Positions 35,578 to 50,670 are shown, numbered from the stretch's first letter. The stretch: 64,000 bases of DNA from Clostridia bacterium (GCA_022791915.1 JAAWAB010000020.1:4391-68390), one strand, 5' to 3'. Translations and numbers: made by a program. The notes: generated by a model from the letters alone, not told the origin.

Positions 35578-35803
35578 TAACAAGAAAAATGGGCACCTAA
35601 TATACTGTTGGGGTGCAAATTTTTTCGGCACACTTTCATAAAAATCCCTGTTTATTCGGCTATTGAAAAGCTTGAAAAATCTTAATGAATTATGCAAAAG
35701 CCGAGATGTGACGAGTTACCGTAAATAATACATATATTTACGGGAGATATGTCGGAGTAGGTTAAGGCAAAAAGTAAAGGTATTGCGGTTAAAGGATAAA
35801 AAC

Positions 35804-37012
35804 ATGAATATCAAATTTTCACCACCCGATATCAGCGAACTGGAAATAGAAGAAGTAACTGCGGCGTTAAAGTCGGGTTGGATTACAACGGGACCGCGCG
35901 TCAAGCGGTTGGAAAAACAGATAGCGGAATATGTGGGAACGCCCCAATGCGTATGTTTGAATTCGCAAACCGCATGTGCGGAGATGGCATTGCGGATTCT
36001 GGGAATCGGTGAAGGCGACGAAGTAATCACGTCGGCGTATACATACACCGCAACGGCTTCGGTTGTATGTCATGTCGGCGCAAAACTTGTGCTGGTGGAT
36101 ACGCAAAAAGATAATCTTCAACCCGATTATAAGGCGTTGGAAGCTGCAATTACCGAGCGTACGAAAGCAATTATTCCCGTGGATATAGCGGGTATTCCGT
36201 GCGATTACGACACGCTGTTTTCCATTGTGAATCGTAAGAAAAATCTGTTTAAGCCGGTGTGTGATATACAGAAATCCATGGGCAGAGTGGCTGTTTTGGC
36301 GGATACCGCGCATGCGTTCGGTGCACAGTGGCATGGAAAAAAAGTGGGGAGTATCGCAGACTTTTCGTCGTTCAGTTTTCATGCCGTTAAAAATTTTACT
36401 ACGGGTGAAGGCGGTGCGTTGACTTGGCGCCACATCGATGGAATCGACGATGAAGAAATTTACCGCAGATTGCAATTATTGTCTTTACACGGACAGAACA
36501 AAGACGCGCTTGCAAAGACCCAACTCGGCGCGTGGGAATACGATATCATCGGTACTTGGCACAAGTGCAACATGACCGATGTTGCCGCGGCTATGGGACT
36601 TGCGCAGTTTAAGCGGTATCCGCTTTTGTTAAAGCGTCGCCGCGAGATGATAGAGCGGTACGATAAAGCATTTAAGCCGCTCGGCATTCGGGTCTTGGAG
36701 CATTATACGGATAAATATGTTTCGTCGGGGCATTTATATCTGACGCGCGTGCCTAATATCACACCCGAGCAACGCAATGAAATCATAACGCGCATGGCGC
36801 AAAAAGGAATTGCTTGCAATGTGCATTACAAACCGCTACCCATGCATACGGCATACAAAAATCTCGGTTTTGACATAAAACGTTACCCGAACGCATACGA
36901 AAATTATGCAAATGAAATTACATTGCCGTTGCACACTTGTCTAACGGATGAAGAAGTGGAATATATTGTGGAAAACTATTGTGAAGTCGTTAAAGGAATA
37001 GAAAATGTATAA
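35804..37012 (+). CDS. DegT/DnrJ/EryC1/StrS-family sugar aminotransferase (PglE/EpsN-like)
   Basis: Start at ATG 35804. FSPPDISELEIEEVTAALKSGWITTGP and the PLP-lysine context SFHAVKNFTTGEGGAL. Confidence 0.85.
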   Translation: MNIKFSPPDISELEIEEVTAALKSGWITTGPRVKRLEKQIAEYVGTPQCVCLNSQTACAEMALRILGIGEGDEVITSAYTYTATASVVCHVGAKLVLVDTQKDNLQPDYKALEAAITERTKAIIPVDIAGIPCDYDTLFSIVNRKKNLFKPVCDIQKSMGRVAVLADTAHAFGAQWHGKKVGSIADFSSFSFHAVKNFTTGEGGALTWRHIDGIDDEEIYRRLQLLSLHGQNKDALAKTQLGAWEYDIIGTWHKCNMTDVAAAMGLAQFKRYPLLLKRRREMIERYDKAFKPLGIRVLEHYTDKYVSSGHLYLTRVPNITPEQRNEIITRMAQKGIACNVHYKPLPMHTAYKNLGFDIKRYPNAYENYANEITLPLHTCLTDEEVEYIVENYCEVVKGIENV

Positions 37013-37799
37013 ACACTTCTTTAAGCCATTATTTGATTTTATAATTGCTTTGATAGGGTTACCTTTTTTTATCCTGTTGTTTATTCCCATTGCAATCGCC
37101 ATTAAAATTAACGATGGCGGTCCCATATTTTATTGCGGAAAAAGATTGGGACGAAACGGTAAACCGTTTAGAATGTATAAATTTCGTTCCATGAAGGTGA
37201 ATGCGCCCGATATCCGTTTAAGCGACGGTTCGACATATAATGCGGAAGACGATGACAGAGTTACGAAAGTAGGGCGATTCTTACGCAAAACTTCATTAGA
37301 TGAAATTCCGCAATTATTAAATGTTTTGCTTTTTCAGATGAGTTTTATCGGTCCGCGTCCCGATCCGATTGATTGGTTGGAAAAGTATCCGGAGGACGAA
37401 AGGGATTTTCTGAAATTACGCCCCGGAATTACGGGATACAATCAAGCGTATTTCCGTAACAGTGCCGACGGTAACGAAAAAATACGCAATGATAACTATT
37501 ATGCAAGACATATTTCTTTTTGGTTGGATATTAAAATCTTTTTTAAGTCTTTTATTGTAGTAATCAAAAAAGAAAATATAAATGTAACGGAAAACAGAAT
37601 AGAAAATGGTACCGAAACAATGGAGTCAAATGATGCTTTTCAATCCGAAGAACTCTTGGCGGAGAGTGAAGAATTGGGTGAAATCTCTGATGATACGGGA
37701 ATGGGTGTTGACGATTCGGTAGCAAGTGAAACGGACGAGCGCAGAACAGTGGACGATTCGGAGTCCGACGAGCAGTCAAATGGCGGAGAGATAATATGA
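37005..37799 (+). CDS. small monotopic phosphoglycosyl transferase (bacterial sugar transferase, PglC/WbaP-C-like) with an acidic tail
   Basis: Re-entrant helix LFDFIIALIGLPFFILLFIPIAIAI. Motifs YKFRSM, DEIPQLLNVL, IGPRPD and RPGITGY. About 70 aa of Asp/Glu/Ser-rich C-terminus. Confidence 0.85.
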   Translation: MYKHFFKPLFDFIIALIGLPFFILLFIPIAIAIKINDGGPIFYCGKRLGRNGKPFRMYKFRSMKVNAPDIRLSDGSTYNAEDDDRVTKVGRFLRKTSLDEIPQLLNVLLFQMSFIGPRPDPIDWLEKYPEDERDFLKLRPGITGYNQAYFRNSADGNEKIRNDNYYARHISFWLDIKIFFKSFIVVIKKENINVTENRIENGTETMESNDAFQSEELLAESEELGEISDDTGMGVDDSVASETDERRTVDDSESDEQSNGGEII

Positions 37800-38839
37800 G
37801 AGAATATGGATCCGAATTTTCATATTATGCCGATTGCAGTCCGATTCAAACGCGATGGCAAAAGTATTCCGCCTTTCACCTGTTACGATGTGGGCGAGAT
37901 GCTATTTTTTTGGCAGCGAAAGCAGTCGCGGAAGAGTACGGAATAAAAAAAGTTTATATGCCGGCATTGGCGTGTCATTCCATGTTTGAAGCATTTCAAG
38001 AGTTGGGCTATACGGTTATATTTTACCCGATTGACTCATCGTTTGATTATGTATTAAATGAAGAAAATTACAATCAATGCTTGGTCTTTTTTATGCTTTA
38101 CTATGGCGTTACAGATGTCGGTAAAATCGACAACTTTATCAAAAAGCATAAAAACTGTATTACCTTGGTAGATATTACCCATTCGATTTGGGATAGTCAT
38201 ACTTATAATATGAAAGCGGACATTTTGGTCGGAAGTGTTCGTAAAAGCATAGGCGTTGTGAATGGGGGGATTTTTTTATCCGATGCGATAGATATTACGC
38301 CAAATATGGGTGTTAACGAATTTACGCATTTACGTCAAAAAGCTTTTGCAACAAAATTATTGTATGAAAGCGAGAGCGATTTACGGTACAAAGATGCATT
38401 TAGGTTGCTATTTTCGGAGGCGGAGCAATCATTGCAAATAAAGGGATATGCTGCGAATCAAGAAAGCATTGATAGCATTATGAAAGTTAACGCGGAATAT
38501 ATTCGCAGAAAACGAGAAGCAAATTACAAAATTTTATACGAAGAGTTAAAAGAAATTACGGACATCAACATATTATCCGAAAAAATGAAAAAGGAGAGTA
38601 TTCCGTTTTCTTTGCCGATAACAATATCCGGCAGACAATCATTCCAAAAGAAATTAGCGGAAAAAGGTGTATATGCACCCGTATTATGGCCTATAACGGA
38701 GCAACAAAAAGAGGTGTGTGCCTTTTCGCGTTATGTGGAGGAAAATATGCTTTCGTTGCCGATTGACCAACGGTATAATATCGAGGATATGAAAAATATT
38801 GCCGAAAGAGTTCGAGAGGTGGTCTATGAAAGGCGATAA
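37796..38839 (+). CDS. PLP-fold (DegT-like, type I aminotransferase fold) enzyme of unknown specificity
   Basis: Layout resembles DegT-like enzymes: LRCGRDAIFLAAKAV, MPALACHSMFEAF, VDITHS, and a candidate PLP-lysine in VGSVRKSIGVVNGGIF. Overlaps both neighbouring genes. Confidence 0.55.
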   Translation: MREYGSEFSYYADCSPIQTRWQKYSAFHLLRCGRDAIFLAAKAVAEEYGIKKVYMPALACHSMFEAFQELGYTVIFYPIDSSFDYVLNEENYNQCLVFFMLYYGVTDVGKIDNFIKKHKNCITLVDITHSIWDSHTYNMKADILVGSVRKSIGVVNGGIFLSDAIDITPNMGVNEFTHLRQKAFATKLLYESESDLRYKDAFRLLFSEAEQSLQIKGYAANQESIDSIMKVNAEYIRRKREANYKILYEELKEITDINILSEKMKKESIPFSLPITISGRQSFQKKLAEKGVYAPVLWPITEQQKEVCAFSRYVEENMLSLPIDQRYNIEDMKNIAERVREVVYERR

Positions 38840-40013
38840 AATTCTTATAGTCGGTGCGAGTATATTGCAAATGCCTGCCATTAAGCGGGCAAAAGAAATG
38901 GGGTTAACGACTGCCGTTGCCGATTATAATCCCAATGCGGTAGGAATCCGATTTGCCGATGAATATTATAATTGTAGCACTCTTGATAAAGACGGAATGC
39001 TTAATGTAGTGGAAAAATTTTGCCCGGACGGAATCATGACAATGGCGACCGATTTGCCGATGCGAACGATTGCGCATGTGTGCATGAAAAAAAATTTGGT
39101 TGGAATTTCGGAAGAATGCGCATTGAATTGTACCGATAAAATTCAAATGATTCGCTGTTTCAAAGAAAATGGGGTGCCTTCTCCGAACTTTGAAGAAATA
39201 ACCGATTTATCGGATTTGAAAAGTAAAGCGGACACTTTGCAATTTCCTGCCATTATGAAACCCGCCGATAATTCGGGAAGTCGCGGTGTTGTATTGGTGC
39301 ATAACATAGAAGATTGTTTGGCGCAATATGATTATGTTTATGAATGCTCGCATAACGGGAAAATACTTATTGAAGAATATTTGAGTGGACCGGAAGTGAG
39401 CGTGGAAACTTTTGTTGTCGGTGGGAAGGCACATGTTTTGCAAGTGACCGATAAGGTGACAACGGGAGCGCCGTATTTTGTGGAACTCGGGCATTCCCAG
39501 CCGGGTATGCTAAATCAAAATATCATAGAAAAAATAACCGCCGTAGCGGATTCGGCTTGTCGGGCTGTGGGATTGATAAACGGACCTGCGCATTTGGAAA
39601 TGATTATAACCGAAGGCGAACCCAAAATGGTGGAAATGGGCGCTCGGATGGGCGGAGATTGCATAACGTCGCATTTGGTTCCTTTGTCTACCGGAATCGA
39701 TATGACAGAACAGACTATACGGTATTGTCTTGGATTGCCCGTAAATCTCAACGAAAAGTTGCATATGGGTAGTGCGGTATGTTTTTTAACCGCTCGCGCG
39801 GGGAGAATTAAGGATATACAAGGAGTGGAAAGAGCTTATCGAATTGACGGTGTGAAAGAAGTCGGATTTTTCAAGCAGGTGGGGGAAGAAGTTGCGGAAA
39901 TTCATTCTTCTTCCGATAGAATCGGATATGTTATTGTCCAGAAAAAATCCGCAAAAGACGCCATTGCCGCATGCAAAAAGGCGGCAAGTAAAATAAAGAT
40001 ACACATTGCGTGA
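38826..40013 (+). CDS. ATP-grasp family ligase
   Basis: Start at ATG 38826. KILIVGASILQMPAIKRAKEMG pre-ATP-grasp domain. FPAIMKPADNSGSRGVVLV, ILIEEYLSGPEVSVE and GPAHLEMIITEGEPKMVEMGARMGG. Confidence 0.8.
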   Translation: MKGDKILIVGASILQMPAIKRAKEMGLTTAVADYNPNAVGIRFADEYYNCSTLDKDGMLNVVEKFCPDGIMTMATDLPMRTIAHVCMKKNLVGISEECALNCTDKIQMIRCFKENGVPSPNFEEITDLSDLKSKADTLQFPAIMKPADNSGSRGVVLVHNIEDCLAQYDYVYECSHNGKILIEEYLSGPEVSVETFVVGGKAHVLQVTDKVTTGAPYFVELGHSQPGMLNQNIIEKITAVADSACRAVGLINGPAHLEMIITEGEPKMVEMGARMGGDCITSHLVPLSTGIDMTEQTIRYCLGLPVNLNEKLHMGSAVCFLTARAGRIKDIQGVERAYRIDGVKEVGFFKQVGEEVAEIHSSSDRIGYVIVQKKSAKDAIAACKKAASKIKIHIA

Positions 40014-40020
40014 GGTACTT

Positions 40021-41268
40021 ATGAAAAAAGTTTGGCTTGTATCGCATTATGCAATGCCGCCGCAACTGGAAGTGCGTGTTAAAACGATTCGATATGCTCG
40101 GATTCTGCAAGAACGAGGATATGAAGTGTTATTGATTACCGCCAGTACGATTCATAACAGTGATATCAACTTGATAGACACAAAAGATTTTTATGTGGAA
40201 CGAGAATACGAAGGGCTGAAATACGTACACATTAAATGTTCTTCGTATAGTGGCAGCGGAATAAAGCGAATTATCAATATGTTGCAGTTTCAACGTCGAT
40301 TCAAAAAAGTTATGAAACATTTTTCCGCTCCCGATGTAATTGTTGCCGATTGCAATTGCGTGAATTACAAGGGGTTGATACAATATGCAAAAGCAAGACG
40401 TGTGCCATTTGTTACGGAAGTAAGAGATTTATGGCCGTTGTCCATTGTTGAATATAAGAACATTTCTCCGAAAAACCCGATTATTCGTAATTTGTATGCG
40501 CGTGAAAGAAAAATGTATTGCTTGTCGGATGCTATAATTTTTTCCATGGAAGGCGGAAAAGATTATATCGTGGAAAAAGGTTGGGATGATACGGTTGATT
40601 TGAACAAAGTATTTTATATCAATAACGGATTAGACGTAGAGTTGCAGAACAAGCAGAAAGAAGAGTTTACGATTGACGATGAAGACTTGAATGATACGGC
40701 TTTCAAAATTGTGTATGCGGGGTCTATTCGTACTGCGAATTCAGTGGATTTGTTGGTAAAAGCCGCCGAACAATTACGCGAGCAAACGGATATCCGCTTT
40801 TTGATATATGGCGATGGAGATAAAAAAGAAGAACTGGAACGGTATTGCGTGGCAAATAATCTTCAAAATGTTCGGTTCAAAGGAAGAGTAGATAAAAAGT
40901 ACATTCCGTATATTTGCTCGAAAGCAAATGTGAACTTTATCAGCGTTAAACAAACGGGTATTTCAAAATACGGGGTTAGTTGGAATAAATTATTCGACTA
41001 TATGAACGCCGAACGACCGATACTATCCAATGTTAAAGTAAATTACGACTTACTTGAAAGATATCGGTGCGGCATCAGTTTGGAAGAGCAGACGCCGGAA
41101 GCCATAGCACAAGCAATTTTGCAAATTTACAATATGCCGAGCGAAGAATATGAGCAGATGTGTCAAAATGCGAAAGAAGCGGCAAAGAATTTCGACTATT
41201 CTATTCTTACGGATAAGTTGGAAGAAGTTATCGAATATGCCATAGAACATCACGGAGAAAAAGGTTGA
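40021..41268 (+). CDS. glycosyltransferase family 4 (WbuB-like)
   Basis: Start at ATG 40021, after RBS gaggt. MKKVWLVSHYAMPP N-terminus typical of WbuB-like GT4 enzymes. GT-B C-terminal domain (VYAGSIRTANSVD..., ISKYGVSWNKLFDYMNAERPIL). Confidence 0.75.
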   Translation: MKKVWLVSHYAMPPQLEVRVKTIRYARILQERGYEVLLITASTIHNSDINLIDTKDFYVEREYEGLKYVHIKCSSYSGSGIKRIINMLQFQRRFKKVMKHFSAPDVIVADCNCVNYKGLIQYAKARRVPFVTEVRDLWPLSIVEYKNISPKNPIIRNLYARERKMYCLSDAIIFSMEGGKDYIVEKGWDDTVDLNKVFYINNGLDVELQNKQKEEFTIDDEDLNDTAFKIVYAGSIRTANSVDLLVKAAEQLREQTDIRFLIYGDGDKKEELERYCVANNLQNVRFKGRVDKKYIPYICSKANVNFISVKQTGISKYGVSWNKLFDYMNAERPILSNVKVNYDLLERYRCGISLEEQTPEAIAQAILQIYNMPSEEYEQMCQNAKEAAKNFDYSILTDKLEEVIEYAIEHHGEKG

Positions 41269-42395
41269 TGGAATTTATAGATTTGCATAAACAATATCGC
41301 GCATTGCAAGAGAATATCGACGCGCGGATTAAAGGCGTGTTGGAACGCGGACAGTATATCGGCGGCGAAGAAGTGCGGGAACTTTCCGAAAGATTAGCCG
41401 CCTATTGCGGCACGCAATATTGTTTAACGTGTGCCAACGGTACCGACGCTCTCACGCTTGCACTCCGTTGTTTTAACGTGAAAAAAGGCGATGCTGTGTT
41501 TGTGCCCGATTTTACGTTTTTTGCGAGCGCCGAAACCGTGGCGCTCGAAGGCGCAACGTGTGTGTTTGTAGACGTAGAAGAGCGTACTTTCAATCTGGAT
41601 GCGCGAAAACTTGAAGATGCGATTTGCGAAGTTATACGGCAGAGAGAGTTAACGCCCAAAGCGATTGTTGCGGTGGATTTATTCGGCTTGCCCGCAAACT
41701 ATCCGAAAATCCGTGCGGTGGCAAAAAAATATAATTTGCCGATTATCGAGGATGGAGCGCAAGGGTTCGGCGGCAGTATAGGTATGCAAAAAGCATGTTC
41801 TTTCGGCGATATTTCCACTACGTCGTTTTTTCCCGCAAAGCCGTTGGGATGTTACGGTGACGGAGGAGCGATATTTACCGATAATAAAGCATATTACGAT
41901 TTAATGTGTTCGCTTGCCGTACACGGAAAGGGCACGTTCAAATATGATAATGTGCGCATAGGGTATAATTCGCGGTTAGATACCGTACAGGCTGGTATTT
42001 TGTTGGAAAAGTTGTCCGCTTTCGAGCGTTACGAATTACAAGACAGAAATATGGTTGCGGAACGGTATACAAAAGCGTTGCGGAATCGATATAAAACGCC
42101 GCAAATTCCCGACGGATTCGGCAGTAGTTGGGCGCAATATACGTTGATTCTGAAAGATAAAAACGAACGCGCGTCGTTGCAGGAATATCTGAAAGCCAAA
42201 GGGATTCCCACCATGGTTTATTATCCCAAACCGATGCACGCGCAAACGGCTTTTGCCGAGTTGCCGAGTCGAAAAGAAAAATTGACGATTTCGTCGCATT
42301 TGTCCGATTGCGTGTTAAGCATACCCATGCACCCGTATTTAACCGAGACGGAGATAAATTCCGTTTGCAATGCTTTGTTGGAGTATAACCAATGA
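41265..42395 (+). CDS. DegT-family aminotransferase, WbpE-like (UDP-2-acetamido-2-deoxy-3-oxo-glucuronate aminotransferase)
   Basis: QYIGGEEVRELSERLAAYCG and the PLP-lysine context TSFFPAKPLGCYGDGGAI. Genetic context includes WbpD/A/B-like genes. Confidence 0.75.
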   Translation: MMEFIDLHKQYRALQENIDARIKGVLERGQYIGGEEVRELSERLAAYCGTQYCLTCANGTDALTLALRCFNVKKGDAVFVPDFTFFASAETVALEGATCVFVDVEERTFNLDARKLEDAICEVIRQRELTPKAIVAVDLFGLPANYPKIRAVAKKYNLPIIEDGAQGFGGSIGMQKACSFGDISTTSFFPAKPLGCYGDGGAIFTDNKAYYDLMCSLAVHGKGTFKYDNVRIGYNSRLDTVQAGILLEKLSAFERYELQDRNMVAERYTKALRNRYKTPQIPDGFGSSWAQYTLILKDKNERASLQEYLKAKGIPTMVYYPKPMHAQTAFAELPSRKEKLTISSHLSDCVLSIPMHPYLTETEINSVCNALLEYNQ

Positions 42396-42967
42396 ACAAA
42401 AAATATTTTGTGCACCAATCGAGCTATGTGGACGAGCCGTGCGAAATCGGCGAAGGCACGAAAATCTGGCATTTCTGTCATATTATGAGCGGATGCACGA
42501 TAGGAAAAAATTGCAATATCGGACAAAACGTCGTTATCTCGCCCGATGTGGTTTTGGGAAACAATGTAAAAATACAGAATAACGTTTCGGTATATACGGG
42601 CGTTACATGCGAAGATGATGTTTTTTTGGGACCAAGTTGTGTATTTACCAACGTAACAAACCCGAGAAGTCATATTTGCAGGAAAGAAGAATACAAAAAA
42701 ACGCTGTTGCAAAAAGGGTGTACCGTAGGAGCAAACAGCACGATTGTATGCGGGCACACAATCGGAAAATACGCATTGATTGGTGCGGGCAGTGTTGTTA
42801 CCAAAGATATTCCCGATTATGCGTTGGTAAAAGGGAATCCCGCGCGCATTAGCGGATTTGTATGTGCTTGCGGAGAAAAGTTGATGTTTGAAAACAACGT
42901 TGCGCAATGTAAATGCGGAAAAAAATACGAAAAACAAGAAGATTCGGTTAAGGAGATAAACCAATGA
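42392..42967 (+). CDS. left-handed beta-helix N-acetyltransferase, WbpD-like
   Basis: Hexapeptide repeats (IGEGTKIWHFCHIMSGCTIGKNCNIGQNVVISPDVVLGNNVKIQNNVSV). Translationally coupled on both sides. Confidence 0.75.
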   Translation: MNKKYFVHQSSYVDEPCEIGEGTKIWHFCHIMSGCTIGKNCNIGQNVVISPDVVLGNNVKIQNNVSVYTGVTCEDDVFLGPSCVFTNVTNPRSHICRKEEYKKTLLQKGCTVGANSTIVCGHTIGKYALIGAGSVVTKDIPDYALVKGNPARISGFVCACGEKLMFENNVAQCKCGKKYEKQEDSVKEINQ

Positions 42968-44286
42968 ATATGAAAGAACTGTTGCTGAAAAAGATTGCGG
43001 ACAAGTCTATTGTAGTCGGCGTTTGCGGACTCGGATATGTCGGATTGCCGCTTGCCGTGGAAAAGGCAAAAGCGGGATTTAAGACAATCGGATTCGACGT
43101 ACAGGAATCCAAAGTTCAAATGGTGAACGAAGGGCACAATTATATCGGCGACGTCGTGGATTCCGAACTTTCCGCTATTGTGAAAAGCGGCATGCTTTCG
43201 GCAACGACCGACTTTTCATTTGTCAAAGACGTGGATTTTATTGCAATTTGCGTGCCCACGCCGCTGGATGCGCATCAACAACCCGATATCAGTTATGTGC
43301 GAGACAGCGCTGTTTCCGTGGCAAAGTATTTGCGTAAAAACACTATGGTGGTGTTGGAGTCCACAACTTATCCGGGCACCACGGAAGAATTGCTCAAACC
43401 CATACTCGAAAAAGGGAGTGGTTTGAAGTGCGGCAAGGATTTCTATTTGGGATTCAGCCCCGAGCGAGTAGACCCGGGCAATCTGATTTACAAAACCAAA
43501 AACACGCCCAAAGTTGTGGGAGCAATCGGTAAAGACGCCACCGAAGTGATTGCCGCTATGTATCGCGCCGTTTTACAGAGCGATATACACGAAGTATCTT
43601 CGCCTGCCGTTGCGGAAATGGAAAAGATACTCGAAAACACATATCGCAATATCAATATCGGTTTGGTGAACGAGCTGGCACAACTTTGTCACAAAATGGG
43701 TATCAGTATTTGGGAAGTCATCGATGCCGCAAAAACCAAACCGTACGGGTTTCAGGCTTTTTATCCCGGTCCCGGTTTGGGCGGACATTGTATTCCGCTT
43801 GACCCATACTATTTGTCCTGGAAGGCGCGCGAATATGGGTTCCATACGTCTATGATTGAATCTTCTATGATGATAAACGATAAAATGCCCGAGTACACCG
43901 TAGAGAGATTGGGAGATATTCTCAATAAGCAGAAAAAATCGCTTAACGGTGCAAAAATCTTGCAACTCGGCGTAGCTTATAAAAACGATATAGACGATTA
44001 TCGTGAAAGCCCCGCGTTGGCTGTGCGGGAGTTACTGAATGCGGAAGGGTGCGACGTGGAGTATTTTGACCCGTTTGTGGCAACATATCGCTATCACGGG
44101 AAACAATACGGCAGTCTGCCCGCTATATCTCCCGAGATTGTGAAAAAGTATGACGCAGTGATTATAACGGCGGGGCATACGAAAAACGTGGACTATCAAA
44201 TGGTTGCCGATAACGCAAAAGCGATTTTCGACACGAAAAACGTTATGAAAAACATAACAAAACGTGATAATATCGAGGTATTGTGA
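42964..44286 (+). CDS. UDP-N-acetyl-hexosamine 6-dehydrogenase (nucleotide-sugar dehydrogenase, WbpA/WecC-like)
   Basis: Rossmann VGVCGLGYVGLPLAV and catalytic Cys context PGPGLGGHCIPLDPYY. Confidence 0.8.
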   Translation: MNMKELLLKKIADKSIVVGVCGLGYVGLPLAVEKAKAGFKTIGFDVQESKVQMVNEGHNYIGDVVDSELSAIVKSGMLSATTDFSFVKDVDFIAICVPTPLDAHQQPDISYVRDSAVSVAKYLRKNTMVVLESTTYPGTTEELLKPILEKGSGLKCGKDFYLGFSPERVDPGNLIYKTKNTPKVVGAIGKDATEVIAAMYRAVLQSDIHEVSSPAVAEMEKILENTYRNINIGLVNELAQLCHKMGISIWEVIDAAKTKPYGFQAFYPGPGLGGHCIPLDPYYLSWKAREYGFHTSMIESSMMINDKMPEYTVERLGDILNKQKKSLNGAKILQLGVAYKNDIDDYRESPALAVRELLNAEGCDVEYFDPFVATYRYHGKQYGSLPAISPEIVKKYDAVIITAGHTKNVDYQMVADNAKAIFDTKNVMKNITKRDNIEVL

Positions 44287-44288
44287 TA

Positions 44289-45371
44289 ATGAAATACGCA
44301 CTTATCGGTTGCGGGAGAATTTCCACCAATCATATCAAGGCGGCTGTAAACAATAATTTACAAATCGTTGCCGTGTGCGATATGGTTCCCGCCCGCATGC
44401 AAGAAGTTCTTTCCAAACACGGGTTGGAAAATAATATGTCGATTGCACGGTATACCGATTATAAAAAAATGCTTGCCGAACATTCGGATATACAACTTGT
44501 GAGTATTGCTACCGAAAGCGGAAAGCATGCCGAGATTGCGTTGTATTGTATAGAAAAAGACATCAATGTAATTATCGAAAAGCCGATGGCTATGAGCATA
44601 GCCGATGCCGAAAAAATCATTGCGTTATCACAAAAGAGAAACGTGAAAGTTTCGGCTTGTCATCAGAATCGGTTTAATATTGCCGTGCAACAAATGCGTC
44701 AAGCTCTCGAATCGGGACGTTTCGGAAAAATTTCGCACGGGAGCGTGCATGTGCGTTGGAATCGCAATAAAGACTATTACGAACAAGCGAAATGGCGGGG
44801 TACATGGGCGCAAGACGGAGGCGCGCTTATGAATCAGTGCATTCATGGAATCGATTTATTGCGCTGGATGATGGGTGATGAAATCGAAGAAGTATACGGC
44901 GTTACAAAGCAACAATTGCATACGTATTTGGAATGTGAAGATATCGGCATGGCGGTTGTTCAATTCAAAAACGGAGCCGTGGGGACAATAGAGGGCACTA
45001 CGAATGTGTATCCCAAAAATCTGGAAGAAACATTGTATCTTTTCGGAGAGAACGGCACGGTGAAACTGGGCGGAAAATCAACCAACGCGATTGACGTATG
45101 GGATTTTGCCGACGAAACGAATGCGGATAAAGAAAACAAAGGACTTTTCGAGCAAACGAGCAACGTGTACGGCAACGGACACACGAGTTTATTTGCCGAT
45201 ATGATGGACGCGATTCAAAATAATCGCAAACCGTATGTCGATGCCGTAGCCGGGCGCAATGCGTTGGAATTGGTGTTAGCAGTATATAAGTCGGCGGCGG
45301 AAGGTAAGCCTGTTAAACTGCCGCTTAAAGAATGCGCGAGTATAGATTTTACGGGAAGGTTTGGAAAGTAA
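44289..45371 (+). CDS. Gfo/Idh/MocA oxidoreductase, WbpB-like (3-dehydrogenase of UDP-GlcNAcA)
   Basis: MKYALIGCGRISTNHIKAA and the IIEKPMA motif. Start could alternatively be GTG 44283. Confidence 0.75.
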   Translation: MKYALIGCGRISTNHIKAAVNNNLQIVAVCDMVPARMQEVLSKHGLENNMSIARYTDYKKMLAEHSDIQLVSIATESGKHAEIALYCIEKDINVIIEKPMAMSIADAEKIIALSQKRNVKVSACHQNRFNIAVQQMRQALESGRFGKISHGSVHVRWNRNKDYYEQAKWRGTWAQDGGALMNQCIHGIDLLRWMMGDEIEEVYGVTKQQLHTYLECEDIGMAVVQFKNGAVGTIEGTTNVYPKNLEETLYLFGENGTVKLGGKSTNAIDVWDFADETNADKENKGLFEQTSNVYGNGHTSLFADMMDAIQNNRKPYVDAVAGRNALELVLAVYKSAAEGKPVKLPLKECASIDFTGRFGK

Positions 45372-46482: not shown

Positions 46483-47571
46483 ATGATTAGGGTATTAAAT
46501 GTTATTTCGGCGCTGAATAATGCTGGAACGGAAGCGGTAGTAATGAACTATTATCGCAATATGGACAGAGAAAAGGTTCAATTTGATTTTTTGGTGCTAA
46601 ATACTGAAAAGGGCTATTACGAAGATGAAATTTTGGCTTTGGGAGGAAATATATATAAAATCCCTTCCTTTACGAAACAACCGTTGAAATGTATGAGAGC
46701 GCGGAAGGCGTTCTTCAAAACACATCATTATGATATTGTGGAAGTACATTCTCCTACGGCATTACGCTATGCTTATTGTAAATTGGCAAAAAAGAATGGT
46801 TGTCAAAATGTTATTTTTCATATTCATAGTTCTTCTAACAGAAAGGGTTTATTGATTAAATATGCACGAAAGCAATTAAAAAAATATTGTGATCAAACAG
46901 CAACATGCTCTCAATTTTCTGCGATTAGTGTTTTGGGTAAAACAGCAGACAAGATAGTTTATAATGCAATAGAATACAATAACTACAAATACAACGATCT
47001 TCTTCGCCGTAAAATTCGAATGTACTATAATATTAAAAATAATATTAAAGTTATTGGATTTGTGGGACGATTTTCAAAAGTAAAAAATCCAATTTTTCTC
47101 TTGGAAGTTTTGTCAGAAATAATACGTTTAGATGATACAATTTTGTTGATGATGAAAGGATTCGGAGAACTGGCAGACGATATTCGAAATAAAATATATG
47201 ATTTACATTTAGAGAAAAAAGTTATTTTATGCGATGAGCAATTTCCCACTTCGGAATTATATAATGCGTTTGATGTTTTAGTTTTACCTTCCTTGTGGGA
47301 AGGATTGCCACTTGTTGGAATTGAAGCCCAGGCAAACGGATTACGGACGCTTTTTTCGGACGTTATTACAAAAGAATTGAATATAAGCGGATTTGCTACA
47401 TTTGTTCCGTTGAACTCTGTGCAATGGCAACAAGCATTTTTAGATTCTCGGAACTTTGAAAGAATTCCCGAAACGTTTGATTTCGGGCAAACGGAATATA
47501 ACATACAGACTGCAGCTCAAAAAAGACAGAATGAATATTTGGAGATGGCGTTTGAAGGCAGTAAAAAATAA
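46483..47571 (+). CDS. glycosyltransferase (GT1/GT4-type GT-B fold)
   Basis: MIRVLNVISALNNAGTEAVVMNYY N-terminus and LPSLWEGLPLVGIEAQANG C-terminal motif. Confidence 0.75.
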   Translation: MIRVLNVISALNNAGTEAVVMNYYRNMDREKVQFDFLVLNTEKGYYEDEILALGGNIYKIPSFTKQPLKCMRARKAFFKTHHYDIVEVHSPTALRYAYCKLAKKNGCQNVIFHIHSSSNRKGLLIKYARKQLKKYCDQTATCSQFSAISVLGKTADKIVYNAIEYNNYKYNDLLRRKIRMYYNIKNNIKVIGFVGRFSKVKNPIFLLEVLSEIIRLDDTILLMMKGFGELADDIRNKIYDLHLEKKVILCDEQFPTSELYNAFDVLVLPSLWEGLPLVGIEAQANGLRTLFSDVITKELNISGFATFVPLNSVQWQQAFLDSRNFERIPETFDFGQTEYNIQTAAQKRQNEYLEMAFEGSKK

Positions 47572-49021
47572 TAATGAATATGGAATTCAAAGTATATACG
47601 GGTTTAATGCAATAAAACCGATTGCTGTATTTTTAAGTGTGGTATGTTTCTTATGCCTATTATTTGCAGAGCAAAGAACGCAATATGTAGGGGTAATATT
47701 TTTGCCGTTATGTTTTTTTATTATAGTGGCGGTGTTTAATACAAGACGGAATATTAATGGATTAGGTGGTTTTCTTGTATATTGCGCTTATATGTTACGT
47801 TTTACTGTTTTTCCTTTAATTATTGTATTAGGTGAATATCGGGCGGACGTCTCCTCCGACATTTACGAACCGTATTTTAATCAAGCATGCGTTATTATGA
47901 TTATTGAATGTATGGCTGTATTTTTGTTGTTGACTCTTTTTGGAAAAAGACAAGGTAGAAAAAAAGTAAAAAAGAGAACTTTACATGATGTTTCCGATAA
48001 AATAGAAAAACTCTGTGGAAATCATTTTTTGAAATTGATAACGGTCGTTTTTTTTGTTTATAATTGTTTTATGTATATTCGCTATCCAACATTGTTATCG
48101 CTTTATTGGCGATCCATATTTATAAGAAGCGATGATTATATTCGTTTGGTAGCATTACAACATTTAATATCAACAATTCCAGGCTTTTTATATTATCCGT
48201 TTAAGTTAAGCGCCGAATTGCTCCGATATTTTATTACTGCGATTTTGGTAGTAAGAGTTAATAAAAACAAGAAGACAGTGATAAAGAATTGGATTCTTAC
48301 AATTATTATAGCTTTTTTTGCTTTTTCTTTGTTATCTTCCGAACAAATCAATTCTATAATTATTGGAATCAGTATTGTGTATTATATGGTTCTTAAATAT
48401 CATCGACATAGTAAACGAATAATTTTATTTGGATTGATGGCGTTCTGCATTGCAACGATTTTTGTTTTTGTCAGTATAGCGGATGTAACAGATATTGGCT
48501 CGATTGGTCGCATTATTAATAATTATTTTAATGGACCTGTGAATACTGCGATTGCAATTCACATGAAAGAAAATCACTTTGTCGGATTGGAAAATTTGAT
48601 AAATGACTTTTTGGACGCAATTCCTATCATTGGTCGATTAACGGGGACGGTATCCGTAAATACCTTTTATGGCGAAATATACAATATGCAAGGGGCTATT
48701 ATTCCCATGTGTGGCTATGGCTATTACTTTTTCGGATATATTGGGTGTTGGTTGCCTGCGGCATTGGTAATTTGCACGGTTAATTTGTTTGACAAAATCC
48801 TTTTGCAAAAGTTAGGGGCCGAATACAAAATTATTGTAACAGTTGCCGTTATTCATATGGCTATTTGTGTTTTTATGTATACGTTAAATATTTATTTTGC
48901 GTCGTGGATTTACTTTTTCATTCCGATAGTAATAGCTTATAAAATAGATAATAAACAAAAACATATAAAACAAAAAAAATACTTATGTAATGTAAAAAAA
49001 GTATATTATCGGCAGATTTGA
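47531..49021 (+). CDS. polytopic membrane protein, probable Wzy-type repeat-unit polymerase
   Basis: At least 10 hydrophobic helices, very AT-rich, positioned between the GTs and the flippase. Start is uncertain (ATG 47531 or TTG 47552; the track ORF opens at 47456). Confidence 0.55.
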   Translation: MNIWRWRLKAVKNNNEYGIQSIYGFNAIKPIAVFLSVVCFLCLLFAEQRTQYVGVIFLPLCFFIIVAVFNTRRNINGLGGFLVYCAYMLRFTVFPLIIVLGEYRADVSSDIYEPYFNQACVIMIIECMAVFLLLTLFGKRQGRKKVKKRTLHDVSDKIEKLCGNHFLKLITVVFFVYNCFMYIRYPTLLSLYWRSIFIRSDDYIRLVALQHLISTIPGFLYYPFKLSAELLRYFITAILVVRVNKNKKTVIKNWILTIIIAFFAFSLLSSEQINSIIIGISIVYYMVLKYHRHSKRIILFGLMAFCIATIFVFVSIADVTDIGSIGRIINNYFNGPVNTAIAIHMKENHFVGLENLINDFLDAIPIIGRLTGTVSVNTFYGEIYNMQGAIIPMCGYGYYFFGYIGCWLPAALVICTVNLFDKILLQKLGAEYKIIVTVAVIHMAICVFMYTLNIYFASWIYFFIPIVIAYKIDNKQKHIKQKKYLCNVKKVYYRQI

Positions 49022-49041
49022 TTAAGATTTTTTGTAATAAT

Positions 49042-50670
49042 ATGATGGATAAAAAGCGAAGTGTCTTAAATATCTCTATATCTATAATATTTCGTATATT
49101 ATTGTTGGTTGCCAGTCTTTTGGTTCGTCGATATTTAATTCGTTATATCGGAAACGAAGCGAACGGATTGGATTCCCTTTATACGAGTATTATCGGTTTT
49201 TTGTCGGTTGCGGAGTTGGGTGTTGGCTCTGCTATCACTTTTTGTATGTACAAACCGATTGTAGAAGGCAATACCCAAAAAGTGTCGGCGCTATTCGGTT
49301 TGTTTCGCAAGTTATATTTTATTATCGGTGCGATTATTTTGCTTGGCGGTTGCGCGGTTATGCCCTTTTTGCCGTATTTGGCAAAAGATTATTCTTCCGC
49401 AAATTGGCAGCTATTTGTTACGTTTGGATTACTGCTTGTTGCTATCGTATTGTCGTATGCGTTCAGTGCCGAAATTTCGTTAATCAACGCATATAAAAAT
49501 AACTATATTACCACGGCGGTTCACTCGGGCGGTCAGTTACTACAATTTGTGTTGCAAGTTGCGGTAATTATTACAACGCGCTCTTTTATCGGATATTTTA
49601 TTTGTCGGATTGTTGCTACGGGAGTGCAATGGGGCGTTACCGTATTGATTTCGCGTAAACAATACGGAAACATAATGCGGGATAAACGGCGCATAGACGT
49701 TGAAACCAAAGGGGAAGTGGTTAAAAACGTTCGGGCAATGTTTATGCATAAAATCGGCGGTATTTTGGTGAATACGGTAGATAGCATTGTTATTTCCGCA
49801 TGTATCGGTGTGGTTATTTTGGGCAAGTACACCAACTATACCGTCATCATGGCGGCTATGACGGGAACGATTTCCCTGTTTTTCACCCCTTTAACTTCCG
49901 TTATAGGGCATATGTGCATAGAAGAAAATAAAGAGTCCGTTTGCAAATATTATAACTTCTTTTATACGTTTAATTTTGTTTTGGGAATCATATTCTTTTT
50001 GGGGTATTATGCTACCATTGATAACATTGTAACAATTTGTTTCGGTGGCGGACTCGAAATGAATAAAACAATATCTTTGGTGATTACGGTAAATTATTTT
50101 ATTCAGTTTATGCGTCAGGCGACGTTGTTGTTTAAGGACGCTACGGGTACATTTTATAACGATCGGTGGAAACCGCTTATAGAAGGACTAGTCAATATTG
50201 CATTATCTATCGGTTTTGTGTATGTATTCGGCTACCTTTGGGGAGAAAATTTTGCCGTTGTCGGTGTGATTGCGGCAACGATTTTGACGAATTTGTTTAT
50301 TTGCCACATGGTAGAACCGCATGTGCTTTTCAAATATGCTTTCAATAGAAAGGCAAAAACGTATTATATAAAGAATTATCTTTACATGCTACTGTTTGTC
50401 GGTATATTGTTTGCTTTGCATTTCACCATGATTACAAATGAAAATCAATGGATAGAAATGCTTGCAAACGGGGGAATATCTCTTGCCTATTCATTTGCAA
50501 TTTCTCTGGCGGTTATTTTGTGCAATAAAGATTTCCGCTATTATATAAAAAGAGTAATGCGTAAATTAAAACACTCTAAAACAGTAGAACCTTTTCCGCC
50601 CGTTGCGGATAGTGTCAACACGGTTGTCGATGATGACCCTATGCAAACGGACAAGAATGATTTAACATAG
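49042..50670 (+). CDS. Wzx-type oligosaccharide flippase (MOP superfamily)
   Basis: About 12-14 TM helices. N-terminal SVLNISISIIFRILLLVASLLVRRYLIRYIGNEANGL is typical of polysaccharide biosynthesis (PST) flippases. Confidence 0.65.
   Translation: MMDKKRSVLNISISIIFRILLLVASLLVRRYLIRYIGNEANGLDSLYTSIIGFLSVAELGVGSAITFCMYKPIVEGNTQKVSALFGLFRKLYFIIGAIILLGGCAVMPFLPYLAKDYSSANWQLFVTFGLLLVAIVLSYAFSAEISLINAYKNNYITTAVHSGGQLLQFVLQVAVIITTRSFIGYFICRIVATGVQWGVTVLISRKQYGNIMRDKRRIDVETKGEVVKNVRAMFMHKIGGILVNTVDSIVISACIGVVILGKYTNYTVIMAAMTGTISLFFTPLTSVIGHMCIEENKESVCKYYNFFYTFNFVLGIIFFLGYYATIDNIVTICFGGGLEMNKTISLVITVNYFIQFMRQATLLFKDATGTFYNDRWKPLIEGLVNIALSIGFVYVFGYLWGENFAVVGVIAATILTNLFICHMVEPHVLFKYAFNRKAKTYYIKNYLYMLLFVGILFALHFTMITNENQWIEMLANGGISLAYSFAISLAVILCNKDFRYYIKRVMRKLKHSKTVEPFPPVADSVNTVVDDDPMQTDKNDLT

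Follow-up and report, generated by a model that had tools for sequence, protein, structure and literature searches.

We analyzed a 64,000-nucleotide stretch of DNA from a Clostridia bacterium (GCA_022791915.1, JAAWAB010000020.1:4391-68390), which we call the window, with attention to two adjacent genes at 37796-40013. One encodes a divergent protein with the fold of a pyridoxal phosphate (PLP) enzyme, hereafter the PLP-fold protein, and the other encodes an ATP-grasp ligase. Both open reading frames (ORFs) are on the plus strand, overlap one another, and lie between the gene for a priming phosphoglycosyl transferase (PGT) and the gene for the first glycosyltransferase of a glycan locus, just as a preliminary description of the sequence had placed them. 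The glycan locus has a G+C content of 35-45%, compared to approximately 50% in its surroundings, and from 35783 to 45371 all genes are on the plus strand and mostly overlap. The genes in this interval are:

35783..37012, plus strand: C4 sugar aminotransferase, DegT/PglE/Pat-like (Pfam DegT_DnrJ_EryC1, 1e-94)
37005..37799, plus strand: small monotopic priming PGT, PglC-like (Pfam Bac_transf, 4.7e-59, residues 7-188)
37796..38839, plus strand: divergent fold-type-I PLP protein, 347 amino acids (marginal DegT match, structural model, conserved lysine)
38826..40013, plus strand: ATP-grasp carboxylate-amine ligase of the L-amino-acid-ligase (LAL) type, 395 amino acids (Pfam LAL_C2 and ATP-grasp_4)
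40006..41268, plus strand: GT4 glycosyltransferase, the first transferase after priming (Pfam Glyco_trans_1_4 and Glycos_transf_1)
41265..45371, plus strand: WbpE/WbpD/WbpA/WbpB-like cassette for UDP-2,3-diacetamido-uronate (Pfam and NCBIfam)

The stop codon of the PGT gene overlaps the start of the PLP-fold gene by 4 nucleotides; the overlap is 14 nucleotides between the PLP-fold and ATP-grasp genes and 8 nucleotides between the ATP-grasp and GT4 genes. The PGT, PLP-fold, ATP-grasp, and GT4 genes are translationally coupled, and the single GT4 gene is all that separates the pair from the Wbp cassette. The ATP-grasp ORF is open from a TTG codon at 38799, and we assigned its start to the ATG at 38826, which is preceded by the ribosome-binding site GAGAGGTGG; homologues align from residues 1-5 of the resulting 395-amino acid form, supporting this assignment. 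The coordinates of the DegT gene are those of its longest ORF, and the true start may lie a few codons inward. Its top NCBIfam match, PseC (1.5e-85), falls under the family cut-off. Since the PLP-fold protein and the ligase each have hundreds to thousands of homologues, their ORFs are real genes and not chance ORFs.

The ligase matches the Pfam families LAL_C2 (1.3e-21) and ATP-grasp_4 (1.1e-20), and its best matches among proteins of known structure are the structural-genomics entry 4dim (3.7e-39), BL00235 (2.2e-29), RizA (3.3e-17), and BacD (3e-15). The Pfam scan, at E-values up to 0.01, returned no TupA-like ATP-grasp match, though it listed eight ATP-grasp families. In an alignment of 21 sequences, residues K145, E183, E258, E270, R274, and G276-G277, which correspond to nucleotide, Mg, and acyl-phosphate residues, are invariant, and E184 is nearly so. 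The three motifs that had been proposed for this protein, KPADNSGSRGV, EEYLSGPEVSVE, and EMGARMGG, are all present. Relatives are numerous, with 6342 found by a word-index search, 15957 by an exhaustive search, and 300 among species-representative genomes.

We examined the genomic context of the ligase at 80 loci from species-representative genomes, each carrying a ligase orthologue at least 50% identical to that of the window. These loci come from two phyla and include Christensenellaceae, other Clostridia, Bacteroidales, Niallia, and Odoribacter; the window proteins were compared against each, and neighbors were counted within 10 kb of the ligase gene. A PGT gene is found at 77 of the 80 loci and lies directly upstream of the ligase gene at 61-67 of them, and a C4 aminotransferase (at least 45% identical) is found at 71. 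A WbpB-type cassette is found at 8 loci, and a UDP-sugar dehydrogenase of any kind at 19. The association of the ligase with the PGT extends to gene fusion: polypeptides of approximately 600 amino acids carry a Bac_transf PGT ahead of the ATP-grasp portion (P0127-P0131, P0135, P0136, P0230, P0354, and P0377), and several of them are 54-65% identical to the window ligase. Thus, the preliminary description's proposal that the uronic acid provides the ligase's carboxylate is not borne out by the co-occurrence of the pair with WbpA/B/E/D modules, which holds in only 8 of the 80 genomes and within one clade; the PGT and the C4 aminotransferase travel with the ligase instead.

A quick maximum-likelihood tree (IQ-TREE) of the ligases, from which L001-L003 were left out as metagenome contigs largely redundant with included loci, and in which L111 and L112 form long branches whose placement is unreliable, places all Wbp-associated ligases, including that of the window, in one clade of ten (SH-aLRT 99). 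Therefore, the link to uronate genes reflects one inherited or transferred locus type and not a trait of the ligase family, and the WbpE/D/A/B-like cassette is context for the PLP-fold/ligase module, not part of it. Within this clade, one locus (L009, also seen as L002) has its ligase fused to the PGT and is missing the PLP-fold gene. Since uronate genes do not, as a rule, accompany the pair, a small free acid is the likelier carboxylate, and the 4-amino group of the priming sugar is the likelier amine. We consider it likely, from this gene company, that the ligase targets a 4-amino sugar.

The gene that follows the ligase gene varies among the 80 loci. It encodes a second LAL-type ATP-grasp at 29 loci, a GT4 enzyme at 15, a PglD-like acetyltransferase at 8, a sugar-transfer-associated ATP-grasp at 7, and a MaoC-like protein at 5; GNAT fusions also exist. 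The particular GT4 encoded at 40006..41268, which we count as context, follows the ligase only in loci of the WbpABED type. In Niallia, the cassette runs in the order PglF-like dehydratase, DegT, PGT, ATP-grasp, second ATP-grasp, and hexapeptide acyltransferase. The PLP-fold gene is found at 10 of the 80 loci, always between the PGT and ligase genes, and the second ATP-grasp and the PLP-fold protein are mutually exclusive across the set. A free alpha-amine could be the target of an acetyltransferase, a second ligase, or a PLP enzyme alike, and this would fit if the first product carried an aminoacyl group. A transaminase partner would suit a 2-oxo or 2-hydroxy acid just as well, the kind of acid that Pyl and PglB2 use (see below).

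The PLP-fold protein has 372 homologues and belongs to no NCBIfam family that we could match; a phmmer search of the PDB likewise returned no sequence match. Its Pfam DegT match is marginal (20.8 bits against a cut-off of 19.8) and covers only residues 234-340, in the C-terminal part of the protein. Across 35 sequences, residues M1, E3, G5, S6, E7, D126, H129, S147, R149, and K150 are invariant, and the N-terminus conforms invariantly to M-[RK]-E-[YF]-G-S-E. The motif VGSVRKS, which had been singled out as containing a candidate catalytic lysine, is present, and the lysine within it is K150. When the protein was aligned by hhalign with the WbpE-like DegT protein of the same locus (E 1.2e-4, probability 55%), K150 lay opposite the Schiff-base lysine of SFFPAK and D126 lay opposite the cofactor (pyridine-binding) aspartate of EDGAQ. 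The PLP-fold protein keeps the Schiff-base lysine. The lysine loop, S147-x-R149-K150, is two residues shorter than SFxxxK and departs from the DegT spacing. An AlphaFold2 model of the protein (pLDDT 91.6) has PseC, WecE, ArnB, QdtB, and NtdA, along with NifS/IscS, as its best Foldseek matches, with TM scores of 0.6-0.68 and 12-16% identity. Compared with the DegT/DnrJ/EryC1 enzymes PseC, WecE, ArnB, and QdtB, then, the PLP-fold protein shares fold type I and has an aspartate, a histidine, a serine, and a lysine that are equivalently placed, but it differs in its low identity, its C-terminal-only Pfam match, its shortened S-x-R-K loop, and an invariant N-terminus of its own. Judging from the model and the conserved residues, it is probably an active fold-type-I PLP enzyme of a distinct, unnamed family. 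The enzyme classes given in the preliminary description stand: a PLP-fold protein with a conserved lysine and an ATP-grasp carboxylate-amine ligase, coupled and engaged in tailoring within a glycan locus.

The genomic partners of the PLP-fold protein are not confined to uronate loci. Two of the PLP-fold/ligase loci, L025 and L041, are without a Wbp cassette, and a PLP-fold relative of 31% identity, P0102, occurs on 23 contigs in a locus of PGT, PLP-fold, ATP-grasp, GT4, and DegT genes without uronate genes. Of 401 genomes sampled from the same phylum, 15 have the PLP-fold family, and the two closest matches outside the window's own genome have the PGT, PLP-fold, and ATP-grasp genes together. 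In a Bacteroidaceae metagenome-assembled genome, the PLP-fold protein and the ligase are naturally fused in one 778-amino acid ORF (P0349, L022:3611-5923) with 32% identity to the window's PLP-fold protein (E 6e-38) and 55% identity to its ligase. A second long protein, P0388 (729 amino acids), was considered as a PLP-fold fusion and found not to be one. The locus that holds P0349 comprises DegT, PGT, GT4, and WbpE/D/A/B genes and mirrors that of the window; this likeness suggests transfer of a complete locus between phyla.

More distant members of the PLP-fold family (22-26% identical) adjoin FemAB-like aminoacyl transferases in five loci with NeuB and cytidylyltransferase genes, and in a sixth locus, L112, a FemAB-like gene lies approximately 2 kb from a PLP-fold relative. 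Members of the PLP-fold family thus keep company with enzymes that attach amino acids to the amines of sugars. The amino acid used by FemAB enzymes comes from tRNA, so a role for the PLP-fold protein after attachment is more likely than a role as supplier of the acid. Loci L113, L119, L120, L121, and L122, which have FemAB-like genes with distant PLP-fold relatives, also have NeuB, cytidylyltransferase, and UDP-GlcNAc 2-epimerase genes and are probably nonulosonic-acid pathways with aminoacyl N-substituents.

By analogy with Neisseria PglB2 and Bacillus cereus Pat/Pyl, we lean toward reading the four coupled genes at 35783-40013 as a cassette for a priming sugar. The order of steps, the acceptor, the acyl donor, and the PLP chemistry that we infer for it are as follows. 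A PglF-like 4,6-dehydratase encoded elsewhere and the DegT enzyme would produce UDP-2-acetamido-4-amino-2,4,6-trideoxyhexose, the DegT product being a UDP-4-amino-4,6-dideoxy-HexNAc that would be the source of the acceptor amine. The ATP-grasp ligase would then form an acyl phosphate from a small free carboxylic acid, for which an alpha-amino acid or the corresponding 2-oxo or 2-hydroxy acid is the most likely candidate, and use it to acylate the 4-amino group of the sugar, a step that would replace the usual PglD-type acetylation. The PLP-fold protein would next act at the alpha-position of the attached acyl group, either interconverting aminoacyl and 2-oxoacyl forms through transamination or epimerizing the L-form to the D-form. 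Finally, the small PGT would move the decorated sugar phosphate onto undecaprenyl phosphate, and GT4 enzymes would extend the glycan with diacetamido-uronate. Action of the PLP-fold protein after ligation is, on the evidence of its partners, close to an even proposition, if slightly short of one. Somewhat more tentatively, we propose that it represents an undescribed PLP family whose substrates are amino-acid side chains joined beforehand to amino sugars through an amide bond, interconverting N-aminoacyl and 2-oxoacyl groups or flipping them to the D-form, and serving as an interchangeable partner for amino acid-adding enzymes of the ATP-grasp and FemAB types. The N-acylation of the priming 4-amino sugar that the ligase most likely carries out is a known kind of step, and the PLP partner is an undescribed variant.

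The Pfam scan identified no acetyltransferase for the 4-amine in the locus, where the sole hexapeptide enzyme lies inside the Wbp cassette. The PglF-like 4,6-dehydratase is encoded in the same genome on a different contig (C23). This 649-amino acid protein (L124:7691-11159) is the genome's only strong PglF/CapD-like 4,6-dehydratase, and its gene lies among housekeeping genes, directly preceding those for a 538-amino acid Wzy_C protein (O-antigen-ligase or PglL-like) and a D-Ala-D-Ala ligase. The Wzy_C protein might act on the glycan from the window locus as a ligase or an oligosaccharyltransferase.

Two characterized systems offer the closest comparisons. Neisseria meningitidis PglB2 is a bifunctional ATP-grasp/PGT enzyme that yields a glyceramido-acetamido-trideoxyhexose instead of di-N-acetylbacillosamine (diNAcBac) (PMC11130364). 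The window locus resembles it in that an ATP-grasp enzyme would replace the acetyltransferase in bacillosamine-type priming and is physically tied to a small PGT, by adjacency here and by fusion in close homologues. It differs in that its genes are separate with the PLP-fold gene between them, and in that its partner is a PLP enzyme, whereas pglB2 travels with the ORF8 gene. In the UDP-yelosamine pathway of B. cereus ATCC 14579, as summarized in PMC11626204 from Hwang et al. 2014, the ATP-grasp enzyme Pyl ligates 2-oxoglutarate to a UDP-4-amino sugar; the summary describes, as in the window, a C4 aminotransferase and a free-acid-ligating ATP-grasp next to a small PGT, and it reports no PLP-fold partner. 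The 2-oxoacyl amide formed in this pathway is just what a transaminase partner could produce or use up. The window ligase has three features of these enzymes, namely intact ATP-grasp residues, adjacency to a PGT (or fusion to one among its homologues), and an available C4 aminotransferase and 4,6-dehydratase with no dedicated 4-N-acetyltransferase, although 8 other loci have a PglD-like gene.

Several observations weigh against this interpretation. The likeness to PglB2 and Pyl is one of description and gene context, and B. cereus is absent from the best 120 relatives of the ligase orthologue of Niallia, itself a member of the Bacillaceae, so that Pyl is at best a more distant relative. The Wbp-associated ligases stand apart as a clade of their own, on a stem branch of 0.38, and on synteny alone a clade-specific change of substrate could have taken place in them. 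Where a PglD-like enzyme follows the ligase, as at 8 loci, it could acetylate the sugar's 4-amine and so remove the ligase's acceptor. As for the PLP-fold protein, it resembles the cysteine desulfurases NifS/IscS about as much as it resembles sugar aminotransferases, and about half of the loci of its distant relatives showed no amino acid-adding neighbor with the queries that were used.

If the ligase does acylate the 4-amino sugar, the PLP enzyme might nonetheless act before ligation, making an unusual acid such as a D-amino, 2-oxo, or non-proteinogenic amino acid. The fusion and the coupling of the two genes agree with either order of steps, and the PLP enzymes of Campylobacter do provide a co-substrate for their ligase. 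We nevertheless regard this order as unlikely, given that distant relatives of the PLP-fold protein pair with FemAB-like enzymes, which are fed by aminoacyl-tRNA and need no supplier, that the folds nearest to its own belong to nucleotide-sugar aminotransferases, enzymes with large sugar-nucleotide substrates, and that common 2-oxo acids require no dedicated supplier.

Those same structural matches (PseC, WecE, ArnB, QdtB, and NtdA), and the alignment of K150 and D126 with DegT catalytic residues, would also be expected if the PLP-fold protein were an extra sugar aminotransferase that adds a further amine to the nucleotide sugar, which the ATP-grasp enzyme then acylates. This is improbable since approximately 70 of the 80 ligase orthologues work without a PLP-fold protein, so that their acceptor amine must be independent of it. 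Furthermore, most, though not all, PLP-fold loci have a canonical DegT gene in the flank that was searched, the S-x-R-K loop carries a two-residue deletion relative to SFxxxK, and the locus is without an additional keto-forming enzyme.

The proposal that the ATP-grasp enzyme couples the C6 carboxylate of the 2,3-diacetamido-uronate, once activated, to a small amine made by the PLP enzyme draws on Campylobacter jejuni HS:2, in which Cj1438C acts with Cj1436/Cj1437. Its appeal lies in the complete WbpE/D/A/B cassette two genes downstream of the pair and in the fact that all ten members of the ligase's own clade are in Wbp loci. One part of the analogy holds, in that an ATP-grasp uronate amidoligase exists and, with its PLP enzymes, decorates a surface polysaccharide by ATP-dependent amide ligation (PMC11800379). 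The rest of it does not: Cj1438C is a TupA-like amidoligase fused to a GT2 domain, and it uses the glucuronate carboxylate and amine phosphates, with a HAD phosphatase, Cj1435, acting afterward (PMC11800379), whereas the window ligase is LAL-type with no TupA-like match, is tied to a PGT and an aminotransferase, and belongs to a family found mostly without uronate genes. No HAD phosphatase like Cj1435 was seen among the locus genes scanned. Orthologues of 50-55% identity are found in approximately 70 genomes without the cassette, and at 61 of the 80 loci the 10 kb around the ligase gene contain no UDP-sugar dehydrogenase. Fusion of the ligase to the PGT is seen within the Wbp clade as well (L009), and PLP-fold/ligase pairs occur without uronate genes at L025, L041, L111, L112, and the P0102 loci. 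Amidation of the uronate is, therefore, very improbable, and an ATP-grasp enzyme beside uronate genes is easily misannotated as uronate-amidating.

The closest solved relatives of the ligase share its LAL_C2 domain and its E-x-G-A-R-x-G-G region, and BL00235, RizA, and BacD (PDB 3vot, 4wd3, and 3vmm) couple one free amino acid to another in pathways to antibiotics or dipeptides; the context of the window ligase points instead to an amino-sugar nucleophile. A further possibility, that the product of the pair is a small molecule that stays unattached to the glycan, for instance a dipeptide-like compound of the classical LAL kind, can be set aside as scarcely credible, since at every locus examined the pair lies among glycan genes with which it is translationally coupled, the ligase can be fused to a membrane PGT, and no exporter or natural-product context was seen at those loci.

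Acylation of the priming 4-amino sugar followed by action of the PLP enzyme, if correct, would be a previously unseen decoration on the first sugar of surface glycans in gut Christensenellaceae and Bacteroidales. Replacing an acetyl group on a bacillosamine-type priming sugar alters the antigenic face of the glycan, and in Neisseria immune escape is associated with the switch from pglB to pglB2. The ligase cassette is common across gut Clostridia and Bacteroidales, and almost none of its members have been characterized. Although the PLP partner carries the annotation hypothetical, it is conserved, occurs as a ligase fusion in one lineage, and is found beside two unrelated kinds of amino acid-adding enzyme. 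Its reaction, once known, would define a new amino-sugar tailoring step and aid glycan prediction for commensals such as the Christensenellaceae.

Many loci carry tandem LAL-type ATP-grasp genes after the PGT gene (for example L029:9992-13273 and L024:9971-13516), followed by a hexapeptide acyltransferase in Niallia and by an ornithine-cyclodeaminase/mu-crystallin protein in Odoribacter laneus. This arrangement suggests dipeptidyl or otherwise elaborated side chains. A 753-amino acid fusion of a LAL-type ATP-grasp, 35% identical to that of the window, with a flavin mononucleotide-dependent alpha-hydroxy-acid dehydrogenase (P0474, L093:2476-4737) was considered as support for alpha-hydroxy or oxo acid chemistry but was dropped, since its surroundings, which include an adjacent HpaB-like hydroxylase, are not those of a glycan locus.

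The priming PGT of the window has a C-terminal tail of approximately 75 residues (37569-37799) that is acidic, rich in Glu, Asp, and Ser, and extends beyond the catalytic core of approximately 190 amino acids. PGT orthologues in related loci are shorter, at 197-215 amino acids. Downstream of the Wbp cassette lie further GT4 genes and genes for membrane proteins, and the locus as a whole looks like a Wzy-type polysaccharide locus in a gut Clostridia-type bacterium. Two long ORFs of 521 and 550 amino acids at 47456-50670, in the part of the locus with the lowest G+C content (approximately 35%), have no Pfam match and presumably encode the polymerase and another membrane component.

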